Below, piece by piece: positions 34,981 to 62,654 of a stretch of DNA of 64,000 bases (within the stretch, counting starts at the first letter, position 1; each line of letters opens with the position of its first letter). The stretch is taken from positions 333,945-397,944 of the forward strand of contig OZ251486.1 in the NCBI GenBank assembly GCA_965242705.1. The letters are read 5' to 3'. Below the pieces are notes generated by a model. It was not told where the DNA came from. It saw only the letters and a list, made by a program, of their open reading frames with translations, and did no database searches. The translations under genes and the position numbers were made by a program. The stretch comes from Bryobacterales bacterium (lineage in GTDB: Bacteria; Acidobacteriota; Terriglobia; Bryobacterales; UBA6623).

Positions 34981-35015
34981 GCGGCCGACCCGCGACCCGC
35001 CGGGCCGCGCTTTGC
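34981..35015. repeat. Degenerate REP-like element
   Basis: ggccgacccgcgacccgccgggccgcgctttgccgc: a GACCCG tandem motif plus a decayed GC hairpin. Confidence 0.5.
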
Positions 35016-35231: not shown

Positions 35232-37655
35232 CTATTCAACGGCAATCGTGGCGCCGGACTGGCTGATGCGGCCGGCTAGGGCGAGGCGCAACTCGGCGGC
35301 GTTTGACGGGGCGAGGTTGCGCGGGATTTCCACGATGACCAGGTTGACGCCGGCCATGTCCGGGGCCAGGCCGGAAAAGCGGACGTTCTCCGGGGACACC
35401 GCGTATGCGCCGATCCAGACCCGCGGGCGCGCTGCGGTATGCCGCAGCACGGCGTTCGAGCCGTTCGCCAAGCAGACGCCGTTCGGGGCGCATGAGTTCA
35501 TGCCGTCGGCGAGCGGCGGCTCCACCGCGCCCAGGCCCGTCGCGTAAATCTCCAGCACGTCGCCGGCGCGCGCCGGGCGGCTGCCCGCGCTGAAACCCAG
35601 CGGCGCGGCCAAGTCGGTCGTGCCCGCGAACGTCGCCAGCGCCTGTCCCTGGCCCGCGCTCTGTCCCTCGCCCGAGACCGTGAACACGCCCGGCGCGTAG
35701 GGGCCGACCCAGAAATGCCGCGGCCAACTGCTCTCGCCGCCGGATTCCACCACCACGCTCGCCAACGCCAAGCCGCCCGCCGCTACGGCTTCGCCGCCCA
35801 ACGCCCAGGGCAACTGCGCCTCGATGCGCTGCGGGCCTACGGCCATCAGCGGAACCGCCGCGCCGTCGATCAGCACCCGCGCCCCGCCCAGCATCGTCGG
35901 CAGCGGAAAGCCCGCCGCTTCCATGCGCTCACCCGAAGCGAAGTTCACGCCCTGCACGACCACCGCGGCGCCCGGCGCCAGCGGCAGCAACTGCGGCCCG
36001 AACAGCCCGCGCTCGCCGTAGGCGCTCATGCGCGCCGCACTGAATACGCCGCCGTTCTCCGACACCGCCGGCCCCGTCGGCGGGGGAACTTCCAGCACGA
36101 TGCGGATCGCGGCCGTGACGCGCCCGCCGGCGCGGATGTACAGCCGCCCGCGGTGGGTTCCCGGGCGCAGCCCCAGAGGGTTGACGCTTACGCGCAGGGT
36201 AGTCGTCTCGCCATCGGCCAAGCGGCCTCTCCATTGGGCAACGTTGCCGTCCGCCGACGAGACCTGTATCCAGCGGGCGCTGGGCAGCGCCTGGAAGTCC
36301 GTTGCGCCGCCTGCGGCGCGCAGCGTCAGCATCTGCGGCGCCGGCGCGGAGGAGTCGGCGTCCGGCGCCGGCGCGAACGACAACTCGGAAACGCCCACCG
36401 GCTCCACCGACGGCCCCGGATCCCTCGGTTTCGGCCCGGTCGGCGGCGGCGGAGGCGGCAGGAAGAAGGTCACCTTGCGGATGCGGTGGTTGCTCGAATC
36501 GGCGATGTACAGGTTGCCCAACCCGTCCACCGCCAAGCCGCGGGGGTGGTAGAGTCGGGCCGCTGTTGCCGCGCCGCCGTCCCCGCCGTATTCGCCCGGC
36601 GAAACTCCCGAAATCTGGGTAGGCCCCGATCCCGCAACCGTGGTAATCACCCCGGCCGCATCCACTTTGCGGACGCGGTTGTTCCACGTATCGGCGATGT
36701 ACAGGTTGCCCAATCCGTCCAGCACCACGCCGCGGGGGGCTCTCATTTCGGCCGAAACGGCCGGGCCGCCGTCCCCGCTGAAGCCGCGCGTCACCGTTCC
36801 CGCGACCGTGGTAATCACCCCGGCCGCATCCACCTTGCGGATGCGGCGGTTGCCCGAGTCGGCGATGTAAAAGTTGCCCAATCCGTCCAGCGCCACGCCG
36901 CCGCGGAGAAGGGACATTTGGGCGGACGTGGCTTGGCCGCCGTCGCCGGTGAAGCCGCTGCCCCCCCCCACTCCCGCTACGGTGGTAATCACTCCCGCCG
37001 CGTCCACCTTGCGGATGCGGTAGTTGAAGGTATCGGCGATGTAGATGTTGCCCGACCCGTCCGCGGCTACTCTGAAGGGGTTGTTGAGTTGGGCGGACGC
37101 GGCCGAGCCGCCGTCCCCGCTGTAGCCTTGCGTCGTTCCCGCGACGGTGGTAATCACCCCGGCCGCGTCCACCTTGCGGATGCGATGGTTGCTCGAATCG
37201 GCGATGTACAAGTTGCCCAATCCGTCCAGCGCCACGCCGCGGGGGGTGTTGAGTTGGGCTGATGTTGCTGCGGCGCCGTCGCCGCCGTAGCTGGCGACTC
37301 CCGTTCCCGCGACGGTGGTAATCATCCCGGCCGCGTCCACCTTGCGGACGCGTTCGTTGTCCGTCTCAGCGATGTACAGGTTGCCCGCCCCGTCCACCGC
37401 TACGCCGTGAGGGTTGTTGAGTTGGGCCGATGCGGCCGGGACGTTGTCGCCCAACGCCGATCCGCCTCCCGCGACCGTCTCGATGGTCGGGACAGCGACC
37501 GGGATGCCCTGCGCCGAGGCGGCCGCCGCCGCCAAGTGGAGGGCGAAGAGCGCAAGTCCCGCCTTGCCGGCGGCAAGCCGGGCGCGGAAAGAAGACGGGA
37601 AGGAAAGAGAAGGCTGCGTGGCGGAGCGTATGGCGATCATGCGTGTGGCGGTCAT
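35232..37655 (-). CDS. NHL-repeat protein with Solibacter-type (TIGR03437-like) C-terminal domain, paralog 2
   Basis: ORF 35232..37793. The ATG at 37655 gives MTATRMIAIRS..LALFALHLAAAAASAQG, a signal peptide. NHL units are present. The C-terminal half is nearly identical to 8619..11960. Confidence 0.85.
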   Translation of the reverse strand: MTATRMIAIRSATQPSLSFPSSFRARLAAGKAGLALFALHLAAAAASAQGIPVAVPTIETVAGGGSALGDNVPAASAQLNNPHGVAVDGAGNLYIAETDNERVRKVDAAGMITTVAGTGVASYGGDGAAATSAQLNTPRGVALDGLGNLYIADSSNHRIRKVDAAGVITTVAGTTQGYSGDGGSAASAQLNNPFRVAADGSGNIYIADTFNYRIRKVDAAGVITTVAGVGGGSGFTGDGGQATSAQMSLLRGGVALDGLGNFYIADSGNRRIRKVDAAGVITTVAGTVTRGFSGDGGPAVSAEMRAPRGVVLDGLGNLYIADTWNNRVRKVDAAGVITTVAGSGPTQISGVSPGEYGGDGGAATAARLYHPRGLAVDGLGNLYIADSSNHRIRKVTFFLPPPPPPTGPKPRDPGPSVEPVGVSELSFAPAPDADSSAPAPQMLTLRAAGGATDFQALPSARWIQVSSADGNVAQWRGRLADGETTTLRVSVNPLGLRPGTHRGRLYIRAGGRVTAAIRIVLEVPPPTGPAVSENGGVFSAARMSAYGERGLFGPQLLPLAPGAAVVVQGVNFASGERMEAAGFPLPTMLGGARVLIDGAAVPLMAVGPQRIEAQLPWALGGEAVAAGGLALASVVVESGGESSWPRHFWVGPYAPGVFTVSGEGQSAGQGQALATFAGTTDLAAPLGFSAGSRPARAGDVLEIYATGLGAVEPPLADGMNSCAPNGVCLANGSNAVLRHTAARPRVWIGAYAVSPENVRFSGLAPDMAGVNLVIVEIPRNLAPSNAAELRLALAGRISQSGATIAVE

Positions 37656-37790
37656 GTGGCTTTTCCAATTACTGACAAATCGAACTTTTTTATATTTTAC
37701 CTTACTTATTCTTTTTAATATGTACTTTACAATACATAAGAACTCTCGGCTGTTGCGTTTTTGCCGGCTGGGAGCAGGAAACGGGGAACC
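37656..37790 (-). promoter_or_regulatory. Strongly AT-rich 5' region immediately upstream of NHL paralog 2 (candidate promoter/UP region)
   Basis: About 130 bp of AT-rich sequence (ttatattttaccttacttattctttttaatatgtactttacaatacataag) in an otherwise GC-rich locus. Absent from the paralogous locus 1. Confidence 0.35.
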
Positions 37791-37994
37791 CACCAGCGGA
37801 ACGGCGCTTGCCGTCCGCGTTGCCGGCTACATTGCCGGCGGGGCGCCGGCGGCGCCGCCGGCGAGTGAAGAGCGCGAGCTCCGCGCCCGCGTGAAAGTCC
37901 CGCCTTGCCGGCTGCAAGCGGGGCGCGGAGAATCGAAAAAAGGAAGGAAGCGCCGCAGGCCGGGGAGCGCAGCGAGCGCGCTTCTCCTTATGAC

Positions 37995-38106
37995 GGGCTG
38001 ACGGGCTGACGGGCTGACGGGCTGACGGGCTGACGGGCTGACGGGCTGACGGGCTGACGGGCTGACGGGCTGACGGGCTGACGGGCTGACGGGCTGACGG
38101 GCTGAC
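37995..38106. repeat. Perfect tandem octamer array (GGGCTGAC)x14, second copy
   Basis: 112 bp, same unit and same copy number as 12113..12224. The flanks are homologous (gcgagcgcgcttctccttat | array | ctcttctca.tatacatc). Confidence 0.97.
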
Positions 38107-38144: not shown

Positions 38145-38224
38145 CATGGTCCTTATTTTGAAACAAAACGACTTGCTTTGCAATAATTTTGCAACAGAAA
38201 ATTGCGGCAACCCCAAAAATATCA

Positions 38225-38372
38225 TCCGGGCCGCGCGAAGCGCGGCGGTCACGAGTCGCGGGTCAAGCCGCAGCGGCGAAGCCGCCCGCGACTGCCGCGC
38301 CGCAAGGCGCGGCCCCCTAACCCCCAACCCCTGGCCCCTAACCCCTGCCGCGCCGCAAGGCGCGGCGTCTTT
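38225..38372. repeat. Composite REP-like cluster (three GC hairpins plus a CCCTAA-like C-tract block)
   Basis: gccgcgcgaagcgcggc, gccgcgccgcaaggcgcggc (x2) and ccccctaacccccaacccctggcccctaacccct. Confidence 0.7.
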
Positions 38373-39126
38373 CTTCGCGGCGTCTGCGTTTCCATTCCTT
38401 TTCATCGACGATTTCGAGATTGAAGAGGACTTCGATATTGGTGATGACTTCCACGATTTGGCCGTTCAGACGGGTGGGCGTGTAGCGCCATTGGCGCACG
38501 GCCTCGACGGCCGCCGGCGCGAGCAGCGGGTGGCCGCTGATGAGCTTGAGGTCGCGGATCGCGCCGTCGAACGACACGACCGCCTCGAGCTCGACCTTGC
38601 CGCTGATTTGCGCCTCGATCGCCTCGGGCGGATATTCGGGCGCGACGCGGCGGGTCAGCCGCGCGTTCTGCACCCGGCCGCCGACGCGGATCGGCAGCGG
38701 CGGGGGCGGCGCGAACGAGTCCGACGGCATGCCGTGCAGGACGCCCCCGGCCAAGCCGCCGGGCAAGCCGCCCGGCATCCCCGCGCCGGCGGCCGCGGAG
38801 ACGAGTCCGACCGGCGCGGCGCCCTTGTCGTCGATGAGCGCGACCTTGTCGGGGATGGCCGCCGGTTGGCGGATGATTTCGCTGAAGCGGTCGGGCGCGG
38901 GGGGCGCGGCGGTTATTTTCGCCTGGGGCGGCGGCGCGGGCGGAGGCGGGGCGGGCGGCGCGGTCAGCAGCGCCGTTGCCGCCCAGGCGTCCAATGGAAT
39001 CTCGTAGGTGAACACCAGGGGGATCGCCAGGATCAGGCCGAGCGCCAGGATTTGCGCCGCGAACGAAAAGGCGAAACTCCACCCGCGGCGCCGGCCGGCG
39101 CTCTCGACAATGGCCTGTTCGAACAT
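38338..39126 (-). CDS. Energy transducer TonB family protein
   Basis: ATG at 39126 (MFEQAIVESAG..), one TM helix, a Pro-rich linker (APPAPPPPAPPPQ), and TonB_C (VAPEYPPEAIEAQISGKVELEAVVSFDGAIRDLKLISGHPLLAPAAVEAVRQWRY). Confidence 0.75.
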   Translation of the reverse strand: MFEQAIVESAGRRRGWSFAFSFAAQILALGLILAIPLVFTYEIPLDAWAATALLTAPPAPPPPAPPPQAKITAAPPAPDRFSEIIRQPAAIPDKVALIDDKGAAPVGLVSAAAGAGMPGGLPGGLAGGVLHGMPSDSFAPPPPLPIRVGGRVQNARLTRRVAPEYPPEAIEAQISGKVELEAVVSFDGAIRDLKLISGHPLLAPAAVEAVRQWRYTPTRLNGQIVEVITNIEVLFNLEIVDEKEWKRRRREERRRALRRGRG

Positions 39127-44685: not shown

Positions 44686-44735
44686 TCCCCCTAACCCCTC
44701 AATCCCTGACCCCCGCGGCGCGGCCCCCCTTCCCT
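44686..44735. repeat. REP-like element, CCCTAA-type variant
   Basis: ttccccctaacccctcaatccctgacccccgcggcgcggcccccc. Confidence 0.6.
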
Positions 44736-46485: not shown

Positions 46486-47732
46486 GCCTCGCTCTCCGCG
46501 GGCAGCAGCGGCTTGGTCGGGTCGATCTTGAGCCAGCACAGCGCCGAAACGAACGACAGCGAGGCGATCAGCGCCAAGGGGACGTTCCAGCCGTAGGTTT
46601 CAACCAGAGACCCGTAGCCGATGCTCATCGCCGCGCCGCCGATTTGCCCCGCCGTGTTCATGGCGCCGCTGACCGAGCCGGAGGCTTCGCGGCCGACGTC
46701 GACGCAGACCGCCCAGCTTGCCGGCAGCATGAAGTCCGAGGCGGCGAAGCCCAACGCCAGCAGCAGGCTGGCGGCCGCGCGGTCTTCGACGGCCAGCGAA
46801 AGCAGGATCAGCGCTCCGGCGGTTCCCGCGCCGGCCATGCCGACGATGCGCCGCCCCCACTTGAGGCCGATCTTGCCGGCGAGCCGGTCGCTCAGCGAGC
46901 CGCCCGCCCAGTCGGCGCAGGCGGCCAGCAGGAAAGGCAGGGCGGTATAGGCGGCGAGTTCGGATTTCCGCCAGCCCTTTTCGGAGGCGAGGTAGCTTGC
47001 CGTCCAGAAGAGATACCAGTTCGAGGCGTAGGCGAAGAAATGGTACGCGCCGAGGATGGCCCAGAAGTTGCCGCTCTTGAGCAGCGCGCCGAGCGGCAGA
47101 CGGGAGACGCGGGCGGGCGGCGGGCCGATCAGGTTTTGCTCGGCTTCGCTGACGCGGGGGTTGTCGCGCGGGTAGTCGCGGAAGCTGCGCCGCCACCAGA
47201 CGGCCCAGACGATGCCGGGCGCGCTGAAGGCGTAGAAGACGCTGCGCCAGCCCCACCGCGCGATCAGCGGATAGACGAGGAAGGGCGAGAGCGCCCCGCC
47301 GATGCGGCCGGCCATCCAGACGACGCCCTGCGCCCGGCCGCGCTCCCGCGGCGGGAACCAGCGCGAGACGACGCAAGAGGCGTTGGGATAAGCGCCGGCT
47401 TCACCCGCGCCGAACAGGGCGCGCACGATCAGCAGCGAGGCGTAGCCGCGCACCGCGCCGGTCAACGCCGTGAAGACCGACCACCAGACCACGATGCGGG
47501 TCAGGATGAGGCGCGGCCCGAAACGGTCGCCCAGCCAGCCGCCGGGCACTTCGAACGCGCCGTAGGTCAGCAGGAAGGCGCTGACCACGTAACCCCATTG
47601 AGTCGTCGAAAGCCCGAGATCGCGCTGCATTTCCGGCCCGGCGGAATTGATGCAGACCCTGTCGAGGTAGGTAATGGTGGAAAGCAGAAACAGCCCGAAG
47701 AGCACCTCTCGTCGGACGTTGCCGGCGCGCAT
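46482..47732 (-). CDS. MFS transporter
   Basis: 416 aa, 12 predicted TM segments. MFS-type loop motif G.L.DRFGPR. Confidence 0.85.
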   Translation of the reverse strand: MRAGNVRREVLFGLFLLSTITYLDRVCINSAGPEMQRDLGLSTTQWGYVVSAFLLTYGAFEVPGGWLGDRFGPRLILTRIVVWWSVFTALTGAVRGYASLLIVRALFGAGEAGAYPNASCVVSRWFPPRERGRAQGVVWMAGRIGGALSPFLVYPLIARWGWRSVFYAFSAPGIVWAVWWRRSFRDYPRDNPRVSEAEQNLIGPPPARVSRLPLGALLKSGNFWAILGAYHFFAYASNWYLFWTASYLASEKGWRKSELAAYTALPFLLAACADWAGGSLSDRLAGKIGLKWGRRIVGMAGAGTAGALILLSLAVEDRAAASLLLALGFAASDFMLPASWAVCVDVGREASGSVSGAMNTAGQIGGAAMSIGYGSLVETYGWNVPLALIASLSFVSALCWLKIDPTKPLLPAESEA

Positions 47733-47748
47733 GGCGATTGATTATGGC

Positions 47749-47826
47749 ACAGCGCGCTTTGCGCGCGGCCGCGGGTCGGCGGGTCACGGGCCGCGGGTCG
47801 GGCGCGCGTTTTGCGCGGCGGCGCAG
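47749..47826. repeat. Composite REP element: hairpin, G-tract core, hairpin
   Basis: gcgcgctttgcgcgc | ggccgcgggtcggcgggtcacgggccgcgggtcggg | cgcgcgttttgcgcg. Near-identical architecture at 54866..54945 and 63893..63965. Confidence 0.75.
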
Positions 47827-49079
47827 ACGTCCTGATTTTGTTGCAGCCATTCCAGCAGGGCTTCGGCGGCCCAGCGGTGGCCGTCGGCGTTCCAGTGGAA
47901 ATCGTGGCGCCATTGCGCGTCGCTGAGCGCGGCGCCTTGACGCAGGATGTAGTCGGCCTGATCGATGACGGGGATATCGAGCGCCGCGGCCATGGCGCTC
48001 ATCCGCTCGAAAACGAGGGGACCGTGGAGCTTCGCGGTGTGCGCGGCCAGGATGACCAGCGCCGCTCCGTCGCGGTCGGCGCGCTGTTTGAATTGCTCGA
48101 GGGCGAAGGCCGTGTAGTCGAGGGCGTCCTCGAAGGCGGGCGGCAGATCGCTTGCGGCGAATACTTGGTGCATGTTCAGCAGCTCGATCGGCGGCCAGCG
48201 TTCGAGCAGCGCGGCATAGCGCGGGCGTTGGCGCAGCGTTTCCACCCAGAAAGGCAGCTTGCGGGGGTTCGGTGCGCAGTTAGCGGGAATATGTACGCAC
48301 ATTTGCGCATCCAGCCGGCGGGCGAACCAAGAGAACTTGGCCGCTCGCCACAGGATGCGCAGGTACCAGGGGTCCGGCGCGCCGGGCGGGGGGCGCGGCA
48401 AGGTGAATTGCGCGGCGTCAGGATGGGGAGGGCGCAGCTCGATTTTTCCGTCGGGGCGCCTTGCCGCATGGATCTCGGGTATGTAGTCCGGGTCGAAACC
48501 GCGACTCAATGAACGCAGCAGGGGATGGTTGTCGAGAAAGTCGTTGCGGACGAAAACCAGCACGACCAGTTTGGGGCGCAAGCGCCGGGCAAAGTCCCAG
48601 TAGGGCAGTTGATGGATTTGGCCGAGGCCGCTGTGGCCGAAGGCCGATGCCGTAACGTTCAGACGGGGCAGGGCGGCGGCGGCGAGCGCTTCGAGGCGGA
48701 CGTGGGATTTTTGGGCGATGGGCACGTCCTTTGCCTCGACGAAGGAGTCGCCGATGAAGGCGATACGGCAGCCCGCCGCGGCGCGTTCGGGTCTGGGCGG
48801 TTCGCGGTCGAGAAAGCCCAGGCTGTTGGCGCGCGAGACGGTCCAGAAGTCGAGCCGGTTCGTATGGCGGATCTCCGTGTGCGGTTTCCAGATATAGGTT
48901 CCTCGGTAAGGCATTACAGGGGGAAAAGATGTCGTCATGAACGGCTTGGTCCGCCGCAACCAAGTCTCGCCGGCGATCGCGATCATCGCCGCAGCGGCGG
49001 CAAGCAGTGCTGCATTCCAGGCGATCAGGCGCAGCGCGCGGCGGAGCCAATTGTGCGGGGGGAGGGGGGTATGGGTCAC
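47784..49079 (-). CDS. Membrane-anchored SGNH/GDSL-like hydrolase/acyltransferase, paralog P9
   Basis: The GTG at 49079 overlaps the P8 TGA (GTGA) and gives VTHTPLPPHNWLRRALRLIAWNAALL (TM). IAFIGDSFVEA; WRHDFHWNADGHRW. The C-terminus reads into the REP element. Confidence 0.8.
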   Translation of the reverse strand: MTHTPLPPHNWLRRALRLIAWNAALLAAAAAMIAIAGETWLRRTKPFMTTSFPPVMPYRGTYIWKPHTEIRHTNRLDFWTVSRANSLGFLDREPPRPERAAAGCRIAFIGDSFVEAKDVPIAQKSHVRLEALAAAALPRLNVTASAFGHSGLGQIHQLPYWDFARRLRPKLVVLVFVRNDFLDNHPLLRSLSRGFDPDYIPEIHAARRPDGKIELRPPHPDAAQFTLPRPPPGAPDPWYLRILWRAAKFSWFARRLDAQMCVHIPANCAPNPRKLPFWVETLRQRPRYAALLERWPPIELLNMHQVFAASDLPPAFEDALDYTAFALEQFKQRADRDGAALVILAAHTAKLHGPLVFERMSAMAAALDIPVIDQADYILRQGAALSDAQWRHDFHWNADGHRWAAEALLEWLQQNQDVCAAAQNARPTRGP

Positions 49080-50332
49080 GGGTCGGGCGCGCAGACTTGC
49101 GGGTTTTGTTGCAGCCATTCTAAGAGGGCTTCGGCGGCCCAGCGGTGGCCGTCGGCGTTCCAGTGGAAATCGTGGCGCCATTGCGCATCGCTGAGCGCGG
49201 CGCCTTGGCGCAGGATGTAGTCGGTCTGATCGATGACGGGGATATCGAGCGCCGCAGCCATGGCGCTCATCCGCTCGAAAACGAGGGGGCCGTGGAGCTT
49301 CGCTGTGTGCGTGGCCAGGATGACCAGAGCCGCTCCGTCGCGGTCGGCGCGCTGCTTGAATTGCTCGAGGGCGAAGGCCGTGTAGTCGAGGGCGTCCTCG
49401 AAGGCGGGCGGCAGATCGCTTGCGGCGAATACTTGGTGCATGTTCAGCAGCTTGATCGGCGGCCAGCGTTCGAGCAGCGCGGCATAGCGCGGGCGTTGGC
49501 GCAGCGTTTCCACCCAGAAAGGCAGCTTGCGGGGGTTCGGTGCGCAGTTAGCGGGAATATGCAAGCACATTTGCGCATCCAGCCAGCGGGCGAACCAGGA
49601 GAACTTGACCGCTCGCCACAGGATATGCACGTACCAGGGGTCCGGCGCGCCGGGCGGGGGGCGCGGCAAGGTGAATTGCGCGGCGTCAGGATGGGGAGGG
49701 CGCAGCTCGATTTTTCCGTCGGGGCGCCTTGCCGCATGGATCTCGGGTATGTAGTCCGGGTCGAAATCGCGATCCAATGAATGCAGCAGGGGAGAGTTGT
49801 CGAGAAAGTCGTTGTCAACGAAGACCTGCACGACCAGTTTGGGGCGCAAGCGCCGGGCAAAGTCGTAGTAGGGCAGTTGCTGGATTTGGCCGTTGCCGCT
49901 GTAGCCGAAAGCCGAGGTCGTAACGTTCAGACGGGGCAGGGCGGCGGCGGCGAGCGCTTCGAGGCGGACGTGGGATTTTTGGGCGATGGGCACGTCCTTT
50001 GCCTCGACGAAGGAGTCGCCGATGAAGGCGATATGGCAGCCCGCCGCGGCGCGTTCGGGGCTGGGCGGTTCGCGGTCGAGAAAGCCCAGGCTGTTGGCGC
50101 GCGAAACGGCCCAGTAGTCGAGCCGGTTCGTATAGCGGATCTCCGCGTGGGGTTTCCGGAGCCAGGTTCCTTGGTAGCTGACTCCAGGGGGAAAAGAGAG
50201 GGCCATGAACGGCTTGGTCCGCCGCAACCAGGTTTCGCCGGCAACCGCGATCAGCGCCGCAGCGGCGGCAAGCAGTGCTGCATTCCAGGCGATCAGGCGC
50301 AGCGCGCGGCGGAGTCGATGGGGGGGGATCAT
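49076..50332 (-). CDS. Membrane-anchored SGNH/GDSL-like hydrolase/acyltransferase, paralog P8
   Basis: The ATG at 50332 overlaps the stop of the 742-aa gene (ATGA). MIPPHRLRRALRLIAWNAALL; IAFIGDSFVEA; DFHWNADGHRW. Confidence 0.85.
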   Translation of the reverse strand: MIPPHRLRRALRLIAWNAALLAAAAALIAVAGETWLRRTKPFMALSFPPGVSYQGTWLRKPHAEIRYTNRLDYWAVSRANSLGFLDREPPSPERAAAGCHIAFIGDSFVEAKDVPIAQKSHVRLEALAAAALPRLNVTTSAFGYSGNGQIQQLPYYDFARRLRPKLVVQVFVDNDFLDNSPLLHSLDRDFDPDYIPEIHAARRPDGKIELRPPHPDAAQFTLPRPPPGAPDPWYVHILWRAVKFSWFARWLDAQMCLHIPANCAPNPRKLPFWVETLRQRPRYAALLERWPPIKLLNMHQVFAASDLPPAFEDALDYTAFALEQFKQRADRDGAALVILATHTAKLHGPLVFERMSAMAAALDIPVIDQTDYILRQGAALSDAQWRHDFHWNADGHRWAAEALLEWLQQNPQVCAPDP

Positions 50333-54315: not shown

Positions 54316-54852
54316 TTATTTTAGTCGAGGGACGGCGGGTTCGGCGGTTTGGCCGGGCGCCGCCGCCGTCCGTTCGTGCTCGAGCAGGAAGCGCTTGCGC
54401 TCGATGCCGCCCGCGTAGCCGGTCAGTTTGCCCGCCGCGCCGATGACGCGGTGGCAGGGCACGAAGATCGAGAGGGGGTTGCGGCCGACCGCCGCGCCGA
54501 CGGCGCGGCTGCCGCCCGGGCTGCCCAGCCGGCCGGCGAGCTCGCCGTAGGCGCGCGTTTCTCCGGGGGGGATGGTTTCGAGCAGGCGGCGGACCTGCTG
54601 TTGAAAGGGCGTTCCGCTCGGCGTCAGCGCCACGCGGGGAGGCGCGAAGTCTCCCGCGAAATAGCATTTGAGGAACGCCTCGGCCCGCGGCAGCCAGAGG
54701 TTGCCGTTCGCCGGCCGTCGGTTTTGCAAGGGAAACCGGCGCTCCATGTCGGCGGCCTGCGCATCGAAAAACGCCGCGGCCAGCCCGTCGCGGCTTGCCA
54801 ACAGATGGATGCCGCCAATCGGACTGTGAAAGCAACTGCGCTCGAACTCCAT
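54316..54852 (-). CDS. ogt: Methylated-DNA--protein-cysteine methyltransferase
   Basis: ATG at 54852 (MEFERSCFHSPIGG..). Active-site PCHRVIG. Helix-turn-wing YGELA..LG.PGGSRAVG.A.G.NP. Confidence 0.9.
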   Translation of the reverse strand: MEFERSCFHSPIGGIHLLASRDGLAAAFFDAQAADMERRFPLQNRRPANGNLWLPRAEAFLKCYFAGDFAPPRVALTPSGTPFQQQVRRLLETIPPGETRAYGELAGRLGSPGGSRAVGAAVGRNPLSIFVPCHRVIGAAGKLTGYAGGIERKRFLLEHERTAAAPGQTAEPAVPRLK

Positions 54853-54865
54853 GCGGTTTATTTTC

Positions 54866-54945
54866 GCATGGCGGGACGCGCTTTGCGCGGCGGCCGCGGG
54901 TCGGCGGGTCACGGGTCGAGCGGGCGCGCGCTTTGCGCGTCTGCG
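54866..54945. repeat. Composite REP element: hairpin, G-tract core, hairpin
   Basis: gacgcgctttgcgcggc | ggccgcgggtcggcgggtcacgggtcgagcggg | cgcgcgctttgcgcg. Forms the 3' end of paralog P7. Confidence 0.75.
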
Positions 54946-56237
54946 CAGACGTCCTGATTTTGTTGCAGCCATTCGAGCAGGGCTTCGGCGGCCCAGCGGT
55001 GGCCGTCGGCGTTCCAGTGGAAATCGTGGCGCCATTGCGCATCGCGGAGCGCGGCGCCTTGGCGCAGGATGTAGTCGGTCTGATCGATGACGGGGATATC
55101 GAGCGCCGCAGCCATGTCGCTCATTCGATCGAAAGCGAGGGGGCCATGGAGCTTCATGAGGTGCGAAGCCAGGATGACCAGCGCTGCGCCGTCGCGGTCG
55201 GCGCGCCGTTTGAATTGCTCGAGGGCGAAGGCCATGTAGTCGAGGGCGTCCTCGAAGGCGGGCGGCAGATCGCTTGAGGCGAATACTTGGTGCATGTTCA
55301 ACTGCTTGATCGGCGGCCAGTCCGCAAGCAGCTTGATCGGCGGCCAGCGTTCGAGCAGCGCGGCATAGCGCGGGCGTTGGCGCAGCGTTTCCACCCAGAA
55401 AGACAGCTTGCGGGGGTTCCCTACGCAGTTAGCGGGAATATGTACGCACATTTGCGCATCCAACCAGTGTGCGAACCAGGAGAACTTGACCGCTCGCCAC
55501 AGGATATGCACGTACCAGGGGTCCGGCGCGCCGCCGGGCGGGGGGCGCGGCAAGGTGAATTGCGCGGCGTCAGGATGGGGAGGGCGCAGCTCGATTTTTC
55601 CGTCGGGGCGCCTTGCCGCATGGATCTCGGGTATGTAGTCCGGGTCGAAACCGCGATTCAATGAACGCAGCAGGGGATGGTTGTCGAGAAAGTCGTTGTG
55701 GACGAAGACCAGCACGACCAGTTTGGGGCGCAGGCGCCGGGCAAAGTCATAGTAGGGCAGTTGCTGGATTTGGCCGATGCGCATATGACCGAAGGCCGAT
55801 GTCGCAACGTTCAGACGGGGCAGGGCGGCGGCGGCGAGCGCTTCGAGGCGGACGTGGGATTTTTGGGCGATGGGCACTTCCATCGCCTCGACGAAGGAGT
55901 CGCCGATGAAGGCGATACGGCAGCCTGCCGCGGCGCGTTCGGAGCTGGGCGGTTCGCGGTCGAGAAAGCCCAGGCTGTTGACGCGCGAGACGGTCCAGAA
56001 GTCGAGCCGGTTCGTATAGCGGATCTCCGCGTGGGGTTTCCAGAGCCCGGTTCCTTGGTAGCTGACTACAGGGGGAAAAGAGGTCGTCATGAACGGCTTG
56101 GTCCGCCGCAACCAGGTTTCGCCGGCAACCGCGATCAGCGCCGCAGCGGCGGCAAGCAGTGCTGCATTCCAGGCGATCAGGCGCAGCGCGCGGCGGATTC
56201 GATTGCGGGGGGGGGGGGGGTATGGGTCACGAGTCAC
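54909..56237 (-). CDS. Membrane-anchored SGNH/GDSL-like hydrolase/acyltransferase, paralog P7
   Basis: The GTG at 56237 gives MTRDPYPPPPRNRIRRALRLIAWN via the C14 tract. IAFIGDSFVEA; DFHWNADGHRW. Internal duplication WPPIKLLADWPPIKQL. Confidence 0.85.
   Translation of the reverse strand: MTRDPYPPPPRNRIRRALRLIAWNAALLAAAAALIAVAGETWLRRTKPFMTTSFPPVVSYQGTGLWKPHAEIRYTNRLDFWTVSRVNSLGFLDREPPSSERAAAGCRIAFIGDSFVEAMEVPIAQKSHVRLEALAAAALPRLNVATSAFGHMRIGQIQQLPYYDFARRLRPKLVVLVFVHNDFLDNHPLLRSLNRGFDPDYIPEIHAARRPDGKIELRPPHPDAAQFTLPRPPPGGAPDPWYVHILWRAVKFSWFAHWLDAQMCVHIPANCVGNPRKLSFWVETLRQRPRYAALLERWPPIKLLADWPPIKQLNMHQVFASSDLPPAFEDALDYMAFALEQFKRRADRDGAALVILASHLMKLHGPLAFDRMSDMAAALDIPVIDQTDYILRQGAALRDAQWRHDFHWNADGHRWAAEALLEWLQQNQDVCADAQSARPLDP
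56207..56220. repeat. G14 homopolymer (C14 on the coding strand) in codons 6-11 of P7
   Basis: Counted directly: 56207-56220 are all G. Confidence 0.95.
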
Positions 56238-56247
56238 GAGTTGAGGG

Positions 56248-57510
56248 TCACGGGTCGGGCGCGCAGACTTGCGGATTTTGCTGCAGCCATTCTAACAGGG
56301 CTTCGGCGGCCCAGCGGTGGCCGTCGGCGTTCCAGTGGCCGTCGCGGGGCAATTGCGCATCGCTGAGCGCGGCGCCTTGGCGCAGGATGTAGTCGGCCTG
56401 ATCGATGACGGGGATATCGAGCGCCGCAGCCATGGCGTTGAGTCGGTCGAAGATGCGGTTTCCATGGAGCTTCGCGGTGTGCGAGGCCAGGATGACCAGA
56501 GCCGCTCCGTCGCGGTCGGCGCGCTGCTTGAATTGCTCGAGGGCGAAGACCGTGTAGTCGAGGGCGTCCTCGAAGGCGGGCGGCAGATCGCGTGCGGCGA
56601 ATACTTGGTGCATGTCGTACCGCCCGACCGGCGGCCAGCGTTCGAGCAGCGCGGCATAGCGCGGGCGTTGGCGCAGCGTTTCCACCCAGAGAGGAAACTT
56701 GAGAGGGTTCTCTGTACAGTGAACGGGAACAAGTTTGCATATTGGATTACTCAGCCAGCGGGCGAACCAGGAGAACTTGGCCGCTCGCCACAGGATGCGC
56801 AGGTACAGGGGGTCCGGCGGGCCGGGCGGGGGGCTCGGCAAGGTGAATTGCGCGGCGTCAGGATGGGGAGGGCGCAGCTCGATCTTTCCGTCGGGGCGCC
56901 TTGCCGCATGGATCTCGGGTATGTAGTCCGGGTCGAAACCGTGAATCAATGAACGCAGCAGGGGGTGGTTGTCGAGAAAGTCGTTGTGGACGAAAACCTG
57001 CACGACCAGTTTGGGGCGCAGGCGACGGGCAAAGTCGTCGTAGTAGGGCAGTTGATGGATTTGGCCGATGCCGCTGCGGCTGAAGGCCGATGCCGCAACG
57101 TTCAGACGGGGCAGGGCGGCGGCGGCGAGCGCTTCGAGGCGGACGTGGGATTTTTGGGCGATAGGCACTTCCTTTGCCTCGACGAAGGAGTCGCCGATGA
57201 AGGCGATACGGCAGCCTGCCGCGGCGCGTTCGGGGCTGGGCGGTTCGCGGTCGAGAAAACCCAGGCTGTTGACGCGCGAGACAGCCCAGAAGTTGAGCCG
57301 GTTCGTATAACGGATCTCCGTGTGGGGTTTCCAGAGATAGGTCCCTCGGTAACGAATTACAGGGGGAAAAAAGCTGGCCATGAACGGCTTGGTCCGCCGG
57401 AGCCAAGCCTCGCCGGCGATCGCGATCAGCGCCGCAGCGGCGGCAAGCAGTGCTGCATTCCAGGCGATCAGGCGCAGCGCGCGACGGAGTCGATTGTGTG
57501 TGTGGGGCAT
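56248..57510 (-). CDS. Membrane-anchored SGNH/GDSL-like hydrolase/acyltransferase, paralog P6
   Basis: ATG at 57510, 3 nt after the P5 stop. MPHTHNRLRRALRLIAWN, encoded through a (CA)5 repeat. IAFIGDSFVEA; RDGHWNADGHRW. Confidence 0.85.
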   Translation of the reverse strand: MPHTHNRLRRALRLIAWNAALLAAAAALIAIAGEAWLRRTKPFMASFFPPVIRYRGTYLWKPHTEIRYTNRLNFWAVSRVNSLGFLDREPPSPERAAAGCRIAFIGDSFVEAKEVPIAQKSHVRLEALAAAALPRLNVAASAFSRSGIGQIHQLPYYDDFARRLRPKLVVQVFVHNDFLDNHPLLRSLIHGFDPDYIPEIHAARRPDGKIELRPPHPDAAQFTLPSPPPGPPDPLYLRILWRAAKFSWFARWLSNPICKLVPVHCTENPLKFPLWVETLRQRPRYAALLERWPPVGRYDMHQVFAARDLPPAFEDALDYTVFALEQFKQRADRDGAALVILASHTAKLHGNRIFDRLNAMAAALDIPVIDQADYILRQGAALSDAQLPRDGHWNADGHRWAAEALLEWLQQNPQVCAPDP

Positions 57511-57513
57511 GGG

Positions 57514-58788
57514 TCACGGGTCGGGCGCGCAGACTTGCGGGTTTTGCTGCAGCCATTCTAAGAGGGCTTCGGCGGCCCAGCGGTGGCCGTCGGCGTTCCA
57601 GTGGAAATCGTGGCGCCATTGCGCATCGCTGAGCGCGGCGCCTTGGCGCAGGATGTAGTCGGTCTGATCGATGACGGGAATGCCCAGCGCCGCGGCCATG
57701 GCGCTCATCCGCTCGAAAACGAGGGGACCGCGGAGCTTCGCGGTGTGCGAGGCCAGGATGACCAGAGCCGCTCCGTCGCGGTCGGCGCGCTGCTTGAACT
57801 GTTCGAGGGCGAAGGCCGTGTAGTCGAGGGCGTCCTCGAAAACGGGCAGCGGATCGTTTGCGGTGAATACTTGTTCCACGAATACTTGGTGCATGTTTTG
57901 CTGCGTGACCGGCGGCCAGTCTGCAAGCAGCGCGGCATAGCGCGGGCGTTGGCGCAGCGTTTCCACCCACAAAGGCAATCTGAGGGGGTTCCCTGCGCAG
58001 TTAGCGGGAATATGCAAGCACATTTGCGCATCCAGCCAGCGTGCGAACCAGGAGAACTTGACCGCTCGCCACAGGATATGTACGTACCAGGGGTCCGGCG
58101 GGCCGGGCGGGGGGCGCGGCAGGGTGAATTGCGCGGCGTCAGGATGGGGAGGGCGCAGCTCGATTTTTCCGTCGGGGCGCCTTGCCGCATGGATCTCGGG
58201 TATGTAGTCCGGGTCGAAACCGCGCTCCAATGAATGCAGCAGGGGATGGTTGTCGAGAAAGTCGTTGTGGACGAAAACCTGCACGACCAGTTTGGGGCGC
58301 AAGCGCCGGGCAAAGTCGTCGTAGTAGGGCAGTTGATGGATTTGGCCGATGCCGTTGTAGCCGAAGGCCGACGTCGTAACGTTCAGACGGGGCAGGGCGG
58401 CGGCGGCGAGCGCTTCGAGGCGGACGTGGGATTTTTGGGCGATGGGCACGTCCTTTGCCTCGACGAAGGAGTCGCCGATGAAGGCGATATGGCAGCCCGC
58501 CGCGGCGCGTTCGGGGCTGGGCGGTTCGCGGTCGAGAAAGCCCAGGCTGTTGGCGCGCGAGACGGCCCAGAAGTCGAGCCGGTTCGTATAGCGGATCTCC
58601 GTGTGGGGTTTCCGGAGATAAGCCCCTCTGTAACGAATTTCTTCAGGGGGAAAAGAGTTCGTCATGAACGGCTTGGTCCGCCGCAACCAGGTTTCGCCGG
58701 CAACCGCGATCAGCGCCGCAGCGGCGGCAAGCAGTGCTGCATTCCAGGCGATCAGGCGCAGCGCGCGGCGGATTCGATTGGGGGGCAT
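57514..58788 (-). CDS. Membrane-anchored SGNH/GDSL-like hydrolase/acyltransferase, paralog P5
   Basis: ATG at 58788, 3 nt after the P4 stop. MPPNRIRRALRLIAWN (C6 tract). IAFIGDSFVEA; DFHWNADGHRW. Confidence 0.85.
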   Translation of the reverse strand: MPPNRIRRALRLIAWNAALLAAAAALIAVAGETWLRRTKPFMTNSFPPEEIRYRGAYLRKPHTEIRYTNRLDFWAVSRANSLGFLDREPPSPERAAAGCHIAFIGDSFVEAKDVPIAQKSHVRLEALAAAALPRLNVTTSAFGYNGIGQIHQLPYYDDFARRLRPKLVVQVFVHNDFLDNHPLLHSLERGFDPDYIPEIHAARRPDGKIELRPPHPDAAQFTLPRPPPGPPDPWYVHILWRAVKFSWFARWLDAQMCLHIPANCAGNPLRLPLWVETLRQRPRYAALLADWPPVTQQNMHQVFVEQVFTANDPLPVFEDALDYTAFALEQFKQRADRDGAALVILASHTAKLRGPLVFERMSAMAAALGIPVIDQTDYILRQGAALSDAQWRHDFHWNADGHRWAAEALLEWLQQNPQVCAPDP

Positions 58789-58791
58789 GGA

Positions 58792-60084
58792 TCACGGGTC
58801 GGGCGCGCAGACTTGCGGATTTTGTTGCAGCCATTCTAGCAGGGCTTCGGCGGCCCAGCGGTGGCCGTCGGCGTTCCAGTGGAAATCGTGGCGCCAGTGC
58901 GCATCGCTGAGCGCGGCGCCTTGGCGCAGGATGTAGTCGGCCTGATCGATGACGGGAATGCCCAGCGCCGCAGCCATGGCGCTCATCCGCTCGAAAACGA
59001 GGGAGCCTTGGATCTTCGTGAGGTGCGAGGCCAGGATGACCAGCGCGCTGCCGCCGCGGTCGGCGCGCTGCTTGAACTGCTCGAGGGCGAAGGCCGTATA
59101 GTCGAGGGCGTCCTCGAAAACGGGCGGCAGGCTGCTTTCCGAGAACATCCAGTAAAGGTCTTCCCGCGTGGTCGGCCGCCAGTCTGCGAGCAGCGCGGCA
59201 TAGCGCGGACGTTGGCGCAGCGTTTCCACCCAGAAAGGCAGCTTGCGGGGGTTCGTTGCGCAATTAGCGGGAATATGTACGCACATTTGCGCATCCAGCC
59301 GGCGGGCGAACCAGGAGAACTTGACCGCTCGCCACAGGATATGTACGTACCAGGGGTCCGGCGGGCCGGGCGGGGGGCGCGGCAAGGTGAATTGCGCGGC
59401 GTCAGGATGGGGAGGGCGCAGCTCGATTTTTCCGTCGGGGCGCCTTGCCGCATGGATCTCGGGTACGTAGTCCGGGTCGAAACCACCCAATGAACGCAGC
59501 AGGGGATGGTTGTCGAGAAAGTCGTTGGGGACGAAGACCAGCACGACCAGTTTGGGGCGCAGGCGCCGGGCAAAGTCGTCGTAGTAGGGCAGTTGCTGGA
59601 TTTGGCCGTGGCTTCTGTGGCCGAAGGCCGATGTCGTAACATTCAGACGGGGTAGCGCGGCGGCGGCGAGCGCTTCGAGGCGGACGTGGGATTTTCGGGC
59701 GATAGGCACTTCCATCGCCTCGACGAAGGAGTCGCCGATGAAGGCGATATGGCAGCCCGCCGCGGCGCGTTCGGGGCTGTGCGGTTCGCGGTCGAGAAAG
59801 CCCAGGCTGTTGACGCGCGAGACGGTCCAGAAGTCGAGCCGGTTCGTATAGCGGATCTCCGCGTGGGGTTTCCGGAGATAAGTCCCTCGGTAACGAATTA
59901 CAGGGGGAAAAAAGCTGGCCATGAACGGCTTGGTCCGCCGGAGCCAAGTTTCGCCGGCAACCGCGATCAGCGCCGCAGCGGCGGCAAGCAGTGCTGCATT
60001 CCAAGCGATCAGGCGCAGCGCGCGGCGGATTCGATTGTGCGGGGGGGGGGGGGGGGGGGCACGAGTCGAGAGTTGCGGGGTCAC
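58792..60084 (-). CDS. Membrane-anchored SGNH/GDSL-like hydrolase/acyltransferase, paralog P4
   Basis: The GTG at 60084 overlaps the P3 TGA and gives MTPQLSTRAPPPPPPHNRIRRAL via the C19 tract. IAFIGDSFVEA; DFHWNADGHRW. Confidence 0.85.
   Translation of the reverse strand: MTPQLSTRAPPPPPPHNRIRRALRLIAWNAALLAAAAALIAVAGETWLRRTKPFMASFFPPVIRYRGTYLRKPHAEIRYTNRLDFWTVSRVNSLGFLDREPHSPERAAAGCHIAFIGDSFVEAMEVPIARKSHVRLEALAAAALPRLNVTTSAFGHRSHGQIQQLPYYDDFARRLRPKLVVLVFVPNDFLDNHPLLRSLGGFDPDYVPEIHAARRPDGKIELRPPHPDAAQFTLPRPPPGPPDPWYVHILWRAVKFSWFARRLDAQMCVHIPANCATNPRKLPFWVETLRQRPRYAALLADWRPTTREDLYWMFSESSLPPVFEDALDYTAFALEQFKQRADRGGSALVILASHLTKIQGSLVFERMSAMAAALGIPVIDQADYILRQGAALSDAHWRHDFHWNADGHRWAAEALLEWLQQNPQVCAPDP
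60041..60059. repeat. G19 homopolymer (C19 on the coding strand) in codons 9-15 of P4
   Basis: Counted directly: 60041-60059 are all G. Confidence 0.95.
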
Positions 60085-62636: not shown

Positions 62637-62654
62637 GGGGGGGGGGGGGGGGGG
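62637..62654. repeat. G18 homopolymer (C18 on the coding strand) immediately after the P2 ATG
   Basis: Counted directly: 62637-62654 are all G. cat (ATG) at 62655-62657. Confidence 0.95.

Follow-up and report, generated by a model that had tools for sequence, protein, structure and literature searches.

Three composite elements, E1 to E3, stand at the 3' ends of SGNH hydrolase genes in the 64,000-nucleotide stretch of Bryobacterales DNA analysed here (the window). Are they signals particular to the hydrolase array or copies of a sequence found elsewhere, and what can they do at a gene end? Our reading, which we consider probable, is that they are the largest local members of a lineage-specific mosaic family of short interspersed repeats.

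Composite elements at the ends of SGNH hydrolase genes

In E1, E2 and E3, two GC palindromes enclose a tract that consists on the plus strand of G-rich CGGGTC(R)(S) units, and each element is adjoined by the 3' end of a minus-strand Lipase_GDSL_2/SGNH paralog:

E1, 47749-47826, minus strand (the gene strand): palindrome, CGGGTC-type repeats, palindrome
E1 proximal palindrome, 47802-47819: within the C-terminus of paralog Pa
E1 heptamer/octamer tract, 47767-47801: holds the Pa stop codon, TGA at 47784-47786
E1 distal palindrome, 47752-47766: GCGCGC-AAA-GCGCGC on the minus strand, GCGCGC-TTT-GCGCGC on the plus strand
E2, 54866-54945, minus strand: palindrome, CGGGTC-type repeats, palindrome
E2 proximal palindrome, 54923-54941: codes for ..CADAQSAR..
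E2 tract, 54892-54922: the Pc stop codon TGA (54909-54911) overlaps a GTG (54910-54912) in frame with an MGMT ORF
E2 distal palindrome, 54875-54891: GACGCGC-TTT-GCGCGGC on the plus strand
E3, 63893-63965, minus strand: interpreted as a join-point where an upstream paralog, which continues past the end of the window, meets Pi, a diverged paralog (62661 to approximately 63929)
E3 distal palindrome, 63892-63908: GCCGCGC-TTT-GCACGGC on the plus strand, inside the Pi N-terminus
E3 second palindrome, 63949-63967

The first-pass annotation described three near-identical elements of about 80 bp, each placed where a run of SGNH paralogs ends. The coordinates and architecture agree with this description, but pairwise identities are only 77, 72 and 66%, with indels. 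Similarly, each element does lie at a paralog 3' end, but E3 is an internal boundary, with two more paralogs upstream of it in the relative L110. The last paralogs do read into the elements, as had been noted: Pa ends in ..QNQDVCAAAQNARPTRGP and Pc in ..QNQDVCADAQSARPLDP, each followed by the stop codon, whereas internal paralogs end in ..QNPQVCAPDP.

Beyond E1, the ATG of an MFS gene (47730-47732) follows after 19 nt; beyond E2 there is an ATG for the MGMT gene at 54850-54852. At E3, the stop codon of the upstream paralog (TGA, 63926-63928) overlaps a GTG at 63927-63929, the probable start of Pi. E2 is kept in the relative L111 (at 2466-2545), and E3 has orthologs at L110:8690-8790 and L118:9890-9985. 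Within E1, and likewise within E2, base pairing between the proximal and distal palindromes is also possible.

A mosaic family of short repeats

The family is built from two modules: tandem C-rich heptamers, GACCCGY or the alternative type CCCYRAC, and a 17-nt GC palindrome with a constant 3' flank, GCCGCGC-NNN-GCGCGGC-CCG. The composite form is palindrome, heptamers, palindrome, and individual copies contain between one and three palindromes, with 2-6 repeat units. The 64-kb window holds at least 12 copies in unrelated contexts, far beyond chance. The motif GCCGCGCNNNGCGCGGC occurs six times in the window against an expectation of 0.11, and GACCCGYGACYCG six times against 0.03. A covariance model built from the copies (R1) has 10 matches in the window, at 35-67 bits, and no match of at least 35 bits in 763 kb of unrelated high-GC control DNA seeded with the motif 18-mer. 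The copies other than E1-E3, with their model scores where given, are:

copy a, 8541-8606, minus strand: palindrome, four repeat units, palindrome (67 bits); between the convergent DUF3604 (plus) and NHL-repeat (minus) genes, sense to the NHL gene
copy b, 22268-22327, plus strand: heptamers and GCCGCGC-TTC-GCGCGGC; the MacB/FtsX stop codon TGA (22278-22280), in the heptamers, overlaps an ATG (ATGA) in frame with a TonB-like ORF
copy c, 23040-23082, plus strand: heptamers and palindrome, translated in frame in the linker of the TonB-like protein (ORF 22331-23410)
CCCTAAC-type copy, 23455-23506, plus strand: heptamers and GCCGCGC-TTC-GCGCGGC (35 bits); codes for the N-terminal portion of a small secreted protein (ATG 23446)
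copy d, 23804-23842, plus strand: two GACCCGT heptamers and GCCGCGC-GAA-GCGCGGC; the upstream stop codon TGA (23814-23816) overlaps a GTG (23813-23815; GTGA) in frame with an HD_4 gene
copy e, 34984-35015, plus strand: degenerate, GACCCGCGACCCGCCGG and GCCGCGCTTTGCCGC, antisense to the flanking minus-strand genes; weak (12.6 bits)
copy f, 38229-38372, minus strand: complex mosaic with a GACCCG-type module at 38224-38274, which is sense to the minus-strand genes, followed by CCCTAAC-type heptamers between two 8-bp palindromes, GCCGCGCC-GCAA-GGCGCGGC
CCCTAAC-type tract with degenerate palindrome, 44687-44730, plus strand: the stop codon TAG of a minus-strand sulfatase gene lies in its G-rich strand (22 bits); kept in L111 at 11419-11471
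heptamer-only paralog junction, 49073-49087, minus strand: GACCCGTGACCC; Pb and Pa overlap here in a GTGA stop/start
further junctions similar to 49073-49087: 56224-56256, 57511-57525, 60078-60092 and 61373-61376

At copy f, the TonB-like gene at 38338-39126 has its stop codon in the G-rich strand of the heptamers. All six loci that had been listed as simpler relatives of E1-E3 are real, but 8541-8606 is not simpler: it has the full palindrome-repeats-palindrome structure of a composite, in a context unrelated to the paralogs. The genes beside the copies are unrelated to one another (DUF3604/NHL, MacB/TonB, small secreted protein, HD_4, second TonB, sulfatase, MFS and MGMT), and a 40-nt core is conserved across the copies (alignment A3). 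We call the family dispersed on the basis of one 64-kb window and approximately 60 kb from relatives.

This distribution bears on an alternative, that there is no family and E1-E3 are alike merely as paralog 3' ends copied along in segmental duplication. The flank to the right of E1, E2 and E3 is indeed homologous paralog sequence, and E1 and E2 have recently exchanged sequence. However, the 40-nt core is also found beside unrelated genes at 8541, 22268, 23040, 23804 and 38229, and in relatives it occurs 5' of the first paralog, with no paralog to its left. The non-paralog copies refute this explanation, and we regard it as extremely improbable.

A scan of a 596-Gb collection of public genome contigs with the 18-mer GCGCGGCGGTCRCGGGTC, a pattern too short for the purpose, returned at least 109 loci, almost all of them chance matches in high-GC genomes. 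Among the matches listed, only L002 looked family-like, and its model score of 27.7 bits falls within the range of the control. A metagenome scan with a 28-mer returned one uninformative contig (L113). Between them, these scans yielded virtually no additional copies.

Variation among related genomes

Relatives at 83-90% identity differ in the presence of copies, the number of modules and the number of heptamers; two relatives that are further removed have no copies in the loci that were compared. Copies b, c and d and the copy at 23455 are found in the window and in L114 but are absent from L115 and, where comparable, from the outgroup L119. At b, where L114 carries one extra palindrome module and L115 has no copy, filled and empty sites appear to differ by replacement of a 62-nt spacer rather than by a clean insertion. 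Copy c is a 57-nt in-frame insertion, present in P0124 and P0125 and absent from P0126 (L115) and from the outgroup P0127 (L119). L115 has approximately 200 nt of unrelated sequence at the 23455 site. At d, L114 is longer by 15 nt (two units), and synteny with L115 stops exactly there. In the paralog arrays of a relative at 62% amino acid identity, the junctions are plain ..GATAGATAATG and the covariance model finds no family match.

Comparison of the filled and empty sites at b and c reveals no clear TSD or TIR of the kind expected of a MITE. The family may have a target preference, for example for CTGCGCCGCGAC.

Stop and restart codons at gene junctions

Copies are usually found at cistron junctions and sense to the genes (8/8 GACCCG-type matches are sense to flanking genes). 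The heptamer holds a TGA, and because its period of 7 places TGA and GTG in every reading frame, it often provides the upstream stop codon together with an overlapping GTGA or ATGA. Heptamers contain the stop codon in copies b and d, in E1-E3 and in the internal paralog junctions; GTGA or ATGA overlaps join successive cistrons across the paralog array as well as at b and d. The reading frame of the overlapping start matches that of the downstream ORF at b, d, E2, E3 and the 5' composite of L110/L118, but not at E1 (a post hoc tally of small numbers). Gene calls in relatives begin at such overlaps (L114 at 4462 and 5998, L110 at 6192). The conserved RLIAWN residues of Pi are encoded upstream of its first ATG; Pi must therefore start at the heptamer GTG.

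Apart from the TGA, neither palindromes nor heptamers hold stop codons; the peptides they encode are rich in Ala, Arg, Pro and Thr and are harmless additions that allow copies to survive inside reading frames. E3 is entirely coding, and the proximal palindromes of E1 and E2 are inside paralog C-termini. The indels separating the window from L114, 24 nt at b and 15 nt at d, have lengths divisible by 3. Across copies the palindrome is read in two frames (RRAxRG and AAxxAA), so conservation acts on the DNA or RNA and not on the protein.

Gene callers disagree on starts near copies, one example being an N-terminal extension, MTPNPRPATRGRRASRGL-, on the TonB-like protein. Predicted restart peptides that run through the palindrome are MTRRPATAVQSAAR.. 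(Pi), MTPNPRPATRGRR.. (TonB-like) and VTRDRRAKRGPTP.. (HD_4). Annotators should be aware of this disagreement, and of the element-encoded C-termini of the terminal paralogs.

A tentative proposal, to which we assign a low probability, is that the heptamer-palindrome unit is a portable, self-spreading 'stop-restart cassette' at or near gene ends. Such a unit would end the upstream ORF and restart translation through the palindrome, thereby creating or maintaining translational coupling. It would also alter protein termini and, through recombination between copies, seed the tandem amplification of genes. If this is true, the family would have an active part in shaping the operon junctions and paralog arrays of this acidobacterial lineage, beyond being passive junk, and the stop-restart property would make it a neat case of selfish DNA pre-adapted to operon junctions.

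RNA signals and G-quadruplexes

A rival reading is at the RNA level: the GC stem-loops of the elements could be functional intercistronic signals. They would insulate the array from downstream genes as terminators (factor-independent or leaky), as attenuators or as barriers to 3'-exonucleases. REP/BIME hairpins play such roles in the malEFG and nrdAB transcripts. The palindromes here fold at -7 to -13 kcal/mol (-17 kcal/mol for the 8-bp variant), and the sense-oriented copies lie 9-30 nt past stop codons; REPs within 15 nt of a stop codon have been reported to stall ribosomes and lower translation (PMC12306157). The palindrome variants are all self-complementary and of (GC)n type, in which compensatory change is not separable from plain palindromy; the single informative change, a substitution in E3, is G-U compatible only on the mRNA strand. 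However, the terminator or insulator role proposed by the first-pass annotation is not supported at E1-E3, where there is neither a U tract nor a sense-strand terminator call: the sequence past the distal palindrome is CUGUGCCAUAAUC in E1 and CCCGCCAUGCG in E2, unlike the U tract of an intrinsic terminator. Downstream starts lie within the element or 15-20 nt past it, too close for a promoter to fit in between were transcription to end there. In relatives, the first paralog has this composite in its 5' leader, upstream of the array, and palindromes lie within coding sequence at copy c, E3 and the proximal halves of E1 and E2. Minimum free energies are no better than those of dinucleotide shuffles (z +0.2 to -1.2), a comparison that is powerless at 67-80% GC. 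In Rfam 15 no family matches E1-E3 at the gathering threshold, and nothing matches 54800-55000 at E<=1. We consider a role as RNA signals unlikely. A Rho-utilisation site was also considered and dropped: the sense RNA is C-rich yet not G-poor.

Another reading gives the G-rich strand a role of its own: at the boundaries of the array, G-quadruplex (G4) DNA, or an i-motif on the opposite strand, would control replication, transcription or recombination. The claim that all three elements satisfy the G4 rule is correct for E1 (five G3 tracts with loops of 5, 4, 4 and 2 nt) and E2 (four tracts with loops of 5, 4 and 6 nt), both of which fit G3N1-7, but E3 fails it with a 12-nt loop. The window as a whole has 20 G4 motifs, against 5.8 +/- 2.5 in shuffles, many of them in the family, in CCCTAAC-type tracts or in two (GGGCTGAC)14 arrays. 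Nevertheless, copies c, d and e have at most three G3 tracts and, with E3 also falling short, G4 capacity is not a property of the family. The motif arises automatically from four or more GGGTCRC units, and G4 potential is a by-product of the heptamers. In addition, the G-rich strand is the template strand, so that the G-rich sequence is absent from mRNA, and a G4 would face competition from the flanking perfect palindromes and a duplex of 67% GC. We consider a regulatory G4 highly improbable.

Origin of the SGNH hydrolase array

The suggestion that the elements are recombination boundaries is supported both by the structure of E3, which is that of a tandem-duplication join-point, and by the point at which E1 and E2 cease to be similar. 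In E3, the shared core connects an E2-type left flank (a paralog 3' tail) with the right flank known from the 5' composite (a paralog N-terminus; alignment A5). Similarity between E1 and E2 ends at the distal palindrome: the left part of E1 is E2-like, and its right part has exactly the sequence of L111's resident palindrome and MFS leader (alignment A4). The tail AATCAGGACGTC is common to E1 and E2 of the window, whereas E2 of L111 has AATCCGCAAGTC instead. The paralogs are themselves mosaics, and the final 150 nt of Pa are closest to Pc.

A probable course of events can be reconstructed from the three present-day element types. The family would have spread and expanded at the DNA level, with a trans-acting transposase, template switching or recombination between GC-rich microhomologies as candidate agents, and its copies would then have served as portable 40-75-nt homologies for ectopic recombination. 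Elements up- and downstream of an ancestral single SGNH gene may have recombined unequally, generating the tandem array and leaving E3 as a hybrid join-point; the palindromes would have been lost from later unit junctions. A recent sequence exchange, whose tract ended at the distal palindrome, appears to have involved the Pa and Pc tails together with E1 and E2. At the E1 site, a paralog may have been gained in the window lineage, or one may have been lost in that of L111. On this reading the elements delimit sub-arrays because they are recombination joints and non-homogenised outer edges, not insulators. With E3 as join-point and the E1/E2 exchange, this provides a sequence-level account of the origin of an SGNH hydrolase array of nine or more copies.

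Comparison with known repeat systems

The first-pass annotation assigned the elements to a dispersed REP family. Copies do occur beside unrelated genes, but a strict definition of REP does not cover them: neither a GTAG nor a CGTC tag is present, several copies lie inside genes, and no RAYT/Y1 transposase is encoded in the window. GTAG-type REPs are extragenic palindromes of 20-40 nt, present in many copies, with a GTAG tetranucleotide at one end (PMC3733652). The family has at least 12 copies in 64 kb; the flanks of its 17-nt perfect palindrome are ..GYGRCC-palindrome-CCG with GTAG in no copy, and the palindrome occurs in the TonB linker (copy c), in coding sequence (E3) and in the C-termini at E1 and E2. 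CGTC-tagged REPs and Rickettsia palindromic elements (RPEs) have a terminal CGTC (or TGTC/CCTC), an 8-9-bp stem starting with A-T pairs and a 4-5-nt loop (PMC3733652). The family has instead a GGTC flank on the G-rich strand, a 7-bp stem of G-C pairs only and a 3-nt loop.

These differences weigh on the possibility that the family is a classical REP/REPIN moved by a RAYT (Y1, IS200-like) transposase whose gene lies in another part of the genome. In its favour are the many short GC palindromes at gene ends, often paired in composites, and their variable presence among relatives. Against it are the palindrome flanks, GRCC and CCG with neither tag adjacent (alignment A3), the perfect 7-bp palindrome with a 3-nt loop and none of the typical REP bulges, and the copies inside ORFs. 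A search for Y1_Tnp/RAYT among the approximately 45 genes of the window found none, and the one Y1_Tnp seen was a weak match in a distant genome, L112, that itself has no family copies. We therefore think a RAYT-mobilised REP improbable. Nor is a dedicated transposase known for the CGTC class.

Our preferred reading, a lineage-specific mosaic repeat family, nonetheless has clear parallels. Like REP/BIME repeats, the copies are short GC-rich palindromes, numerous, located at gene ends and inside operons, and arranged in mosaic arrays with short conserved linker motifs that vary from strain to strain. Here, palindromes and linker motifs vary in number, as in the extra palindrome at b and the two extra units at d in L114. 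BIME motifs proper are E. coli-specific, and the likeness is functional only. Shyamala, Schneider and Ames reportedly described REPs in 1990 as join-points of tandem duplications. REPs near a stop codon also affect upstream translation (PMC12306157). Unlike REP/BIME, the family has a perfect palindrome with a 7-bp stem and 3-nt loop in place of an imperfect one of 20-40 nt, an obligatory heptamer microsatellite, several translated copies, no GTAG and no RAYT seen in the window.

RPEs are palindromic repeats located in frame inside protein-coding genes, where they are tolerated as added peptide segments (PMC3733652); the 57-nt segment of copy c in coding sequence is a case of this kind. RPEs differ in being 100-150 bp long and AT-richer with a terminal CGTC, whereas this family has a GGTC/GACC flank, all-G-C stems and a tandem heptamer module.

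The heptamers have a counterpart in STRRs, tandem 7-nt repeats (CCCCAGT, CCCCAAT) that Mazel et al. are said to have described in 1990 as dispersed in intergenic regions of heterocystous cyanobacteria. The CCCTAAC/CCCCAAC tracts here look similar, but STRRs come from another phylum with a different GC content and are not known to be linked to a fixed palindrome or to supply stop and start codons. ATGA/GTGA coupling junctions likewise link successive cistrons, as the overlaps do throughout the array and at copies b and d; here, however, the overlap sits in a repeated, apparently portable module followed by a palindrome, rather than in a unique in-place junction. Integron attC sites, with the inverse-core consensus RYYYAAC, were also considered and rejected: CCCTAAC does not fit it, and the array consists of tandem paralogs, not cassettes.

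A literature search for a described family of this kind in Acidobacteria or Bryobacter found nothing, and REP families are not listed for the phylum Acidobacteria in PMC3733652. The family is not a fundamentally new kind of element and resembles the REP/BIME and RPE repeats of other bacteria; it adds a family of that kind to a phylum with none listed in PMC3733652 or found by our search, and has an unusual feature in its heptamer module, which gives both a stop codon and an overlapping restart codon and is tolerated in proteins.

Layout of the paralog array and its elements

The gene map of the window (GC content ~67%) was built from codon usage and then annotated with Pfam. Tandem paralogs of approximately 420 aa each, with Lipase_GDSL_2/SGNH matches and designated Pa to Pi, occupy the minus strand from 47.8 to 64 kb in this order:

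Array order on the minus strand
Beyond window end, minus, paralog, then element E3 (63893-63965, minus)
62661 to ~63929, minus, Pi, a diverged paralog
Six further paralogs, minus, the last being Pc (54909-56237), then element E2 (54866-54945, minus)
After E2, minus, MGMT/Ogt gene, S55-like peptidase and Reg_prop protein
47784-50332, minus, Pb and Pa, two more paralogs, then element E1 (47749-47826, minus)
After E1, minus, MFS transporter

The first-pass annotation described E1-E3 as near-identical composites. Their palindrome/repeats/palindrome layout is present at all three, but at a pairwise identity of only 66-77% they are not near-identical. As it also described, the last paralogs of runs read into the elements, giving element-encoded C-terminal ends (..QDVCAAAQNARPTRGP and ..QDVCADAQSARPLDP) in place of the ..QVCAPDP* of internal paralogs.

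Several paralogs carry poly-C tracts of 14-19 nt (poly-Pro codons) on the coding strand at their 5' ends (window 56207-56226, 60041-60059, 61351-61366 and 62637-62654; 11295-11348 and 11215-11269 in the relative loci L110 and L118). In Ph (61373-62518), ATG and C18 are one base out of frame with the body, which points to either phase variation in the off state, pseudogene status or a homopolymer sequencing error. In relatives, two contigs terminate within poly-C runs (≥50 nt) at comparable sites.

A modular repeat family

Aligning the copies by repeat orientation (A3) gave a conserved core of approximately 40 nt: (GACCCGY)n-GRCC-GCCGCGC-NNN-GCGCGGC-CCG. A second heptamer type (CCCTAAC/CCCCAAC/CCCTGAC) is joined to the same palindrome at 23455-23506, 38281-38372 and 44687-44730. 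The palindrome occurs 6 times in the window (0.11 expected), as does the double heptamer (0.03 expected). A covariance model (R1) scored 10 copies in the window at 35-67 bits, plus three that were weaker; in 763 kb of unrelated high-GC control loci, each seeded with a motif 18-mer, it gave no match of at least 35 bits. Together, these results place the family well above chance.

The proposed simpler relatives of E1-E3 are all real, but one of them, copy a (8541-8606), has the full layout of palindrome, repeats and palindrome. It lies between a DUF3604 and an NHL-repeat gene, so composites of this kind are not confined to the SGNH array. In a 76% GC Acidobacteriota MAG, a similar composite (L002:4580-4680) consists of palindromes, then GTGACCGACCCGTGACC, then GCCGCGCC-TGC-GGCGCGGC, and its GTGACC unit holds a gene's stop codon. 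It is possibly a distant family member, but seeded controls reach similar scores by chance.

Stop and start codons within the heptamer

On the codon-usage gene map, each of the eight GACCCG-type copies has the sense orientation relative to its flanking genes. The heptamer contains TGA.

Stop codons inside the heptamer
22278-22280, MacB-like gene
23814-23816, small secreted protein
Pa, Pc and the paralog upstream of E3
Every internal paralog, APDP* being encoded by CCC GAC CCG TGA

These stops mostly overlap a start codon, as GTGA (23813, 49076, 54909, 61373 and 63926) or ATGA (22277). The frame from the overlap start is open across the palindrome and matches the downstream ORF in most cases: at copies b (22268-22327) and d (23804-23842), E2, E3 and the composite upstream of the relatives' first paralog. 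At E1 the frames differ. Gene calls made independently for relatives begin at overlap starts (4462 and 5998 in L114; 6192 in L110). In Pi, conserved residues of the transmembrane segment (..RLIAWN..) lie upstream of the first ATG, and the heptamer GTG is the sole in-frame start that is conserved. This conservation strongly suggests that Pi begins there, in which case E3 would contain no non-coding base.

Copy c (23040-23082), judging by its reading frame, is translated as part of the linker in a TonB-like protein. Different copies encode different peptides at the palindrome (RRAxRG or AAxxAA), so the conservation is of nucleotide sequence and not of a peptide.

Presence and absence of copies among relatives

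Close relatives from one metagenome series were compared, with the TonB region (window 22.1-24.5 kb) aligned to L114 (~90% identity) and L115 (~85%). Copy b is shared with L114, which has one additional 24-nt palindrome module; L115 instead has an ordinary spacer of 62 nt that includes a Shine-Dalgarno sequence. Copy c is shorter in L114 and corresponds to a precise 57-nt in-frame gap in L115; in a protein alignment (A2), this segment is missing from P0126 and from the 57% outgroup P0127. The CCCTAAC element at 23455 is shared with L114, and approximately 200 nt of other sequence occupies its place in L115. At copy d, L114 has two additional repeat units, and L115 synteny stops exactly there, the HD_4 gene being missing. 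The R1 scan found no family matches in L115 (13.9 kb), L112 or the 62% aa relatives L116 and L117, and paralog junctions in the latter two are plain (..GCGGATAGATAATG..). The differences among close relatives, and the absence of copies from distant ones, thus indicate a young, lineage-restricted and dynamic family.

A Trypsin_2 peptidase gene (24412-25983) lies in a 54% GC stretch, against the window average of 67%, and is absent from L114, where HD_4 directly precedes the ortholog of 26025-26801. It is probably a recent insertion.

Probable recombination at the elements

That copies act as recombination boundaries, as had been proposed, is supported by two alignments. Upstream of the first paralog in L110 and L118, between divergent genes, there is a composite; that paralog starts at a heptamer GTG. 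This 5' composite, E3 and E2 have a common core of approximately 75 nt (A5), and E3 has the paralog 3' tail of E2 on its left and the paralog N-terminus of the 5' composite on its right. Such a pattern would be expected of a tandem-duplication join-point, with E3 produced by unequal crossing-over between elements upstream and downstream of a single ancestral gene. Internal junctions retain the heptamers alone and could derive from an E2-type tail that lost approximately 21 nt in frame and, with them, the proximal palindrome (as read on the gene strand).

The similarity of E1 to E2 runs from the paralog tail to the distal palindrome; from there, E1 instead follows the palindrome and MFS leader resident at this site in L111 (A4), which has one paralog there versus two in the window and only a short degenerate tract. 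The tail AATCAGGACGTC is common to the window's E1 and E2, versus AATCCGCAAGTC in E2 of L111, and the exchange was therefore recent and intragenomic. The paralogs are mosaic, the last 150 nt of Pa being closest to Pc.

G-quadruplex motifs and proposed RNA-level roles

Of the three elements, all described as G4-capable, E1 and E2 carry a predicted G4 motif and E3 does not. The window contains 20 G4 motifs (5.8 ± 2.5 in shuffles). Within the family, G4 capacity is an incidental by-product of repeated GGGTCRC. Copies with two or three repeat units have no G4 motif, and the G-rich strand of the elements is the template strand.

Much of the window's excess comes from GGGGTCCGGCGGGCCGGGCGGGGGG, a template-strand motif encoding ..PPPGPPDPW.. 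inside five paralog bodies, Pd-Ph (56808-56833, 58090-58124, 59353-59377, 60657-60681 and 61949-61983). At the corresponding position, Pa, Pb and Pc have a GGCGC variant (48381, 49649 and 55533) that is not called as a G4 motif. A pair of octamer arrays, (GGGCTGAC)14, at 12111-12224 and 37991-38106 are strongly G4-capable on the plus strand; both consist of 14 perfect copies, and their flanks are homologous. Each array lies ~150-200 nt upstream of one of two paralogous NHL-repeat genes on the minus strand (8619-11960 and 35232-37793). That both are perfect and have the same number of copies suggests recent conversion or constraint.

A terminator or insulator role, also proposed, is not supported. 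E1-E3 have no sense-strand terminator-like site or U tract, downstream starts lie 15-20 nt from the element or within it, a composite of the same kind occurs in a 5' leader in relatives, and element folding energies equal those of shuffles. Individual stems are stable (-7 to -13 kcal/mol). A modest RNA-level effect may occur, for example ribosome stalling, which is reported for E. coli REPs when no more than 15 nt separate the stop from the stem (PMC12306157); at copy d, the stop-to-stem distance is 9 nt.

Other window features

A DUF3800-VI RNA motif (Rfam RF02915, 55 bits; 5584-5640, minus) lies upstream of a DUF3800 gene (4783-5679), its expected, ordinary context. A 48-nt tandem repeat (29310-29662; 7.4 copies, 91% matches) within the ribosomal protein L9 gene (29173-30231) encodes a repetitive C-terminal extension of an unusually long protein (352 aa).

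Relationship to known repeats

A weak Y1_Tnp (IS200-like) match (25.5 bits) occurs at L112:14897-15409 (minus), a 21-kb locus of a distant relative that is rich in glycosyltransferase genes and yielded no family repeats.

The family is dispersed across the window, as the first-pass annotation held, but it is not a classical REP family: its copies have no GTAG or CGTC tag, and Pfam identified no transposase among the window genes. Sequence comparison marks its copies as recombination boundaries. Among known repeats it comes nearest to REP/BIME mosaics and to in-frame palindromic elements of the RPE type, from which it is distinguished by the coupling of a palindrome to a heptamer microsatellite bearing a stop/restart.
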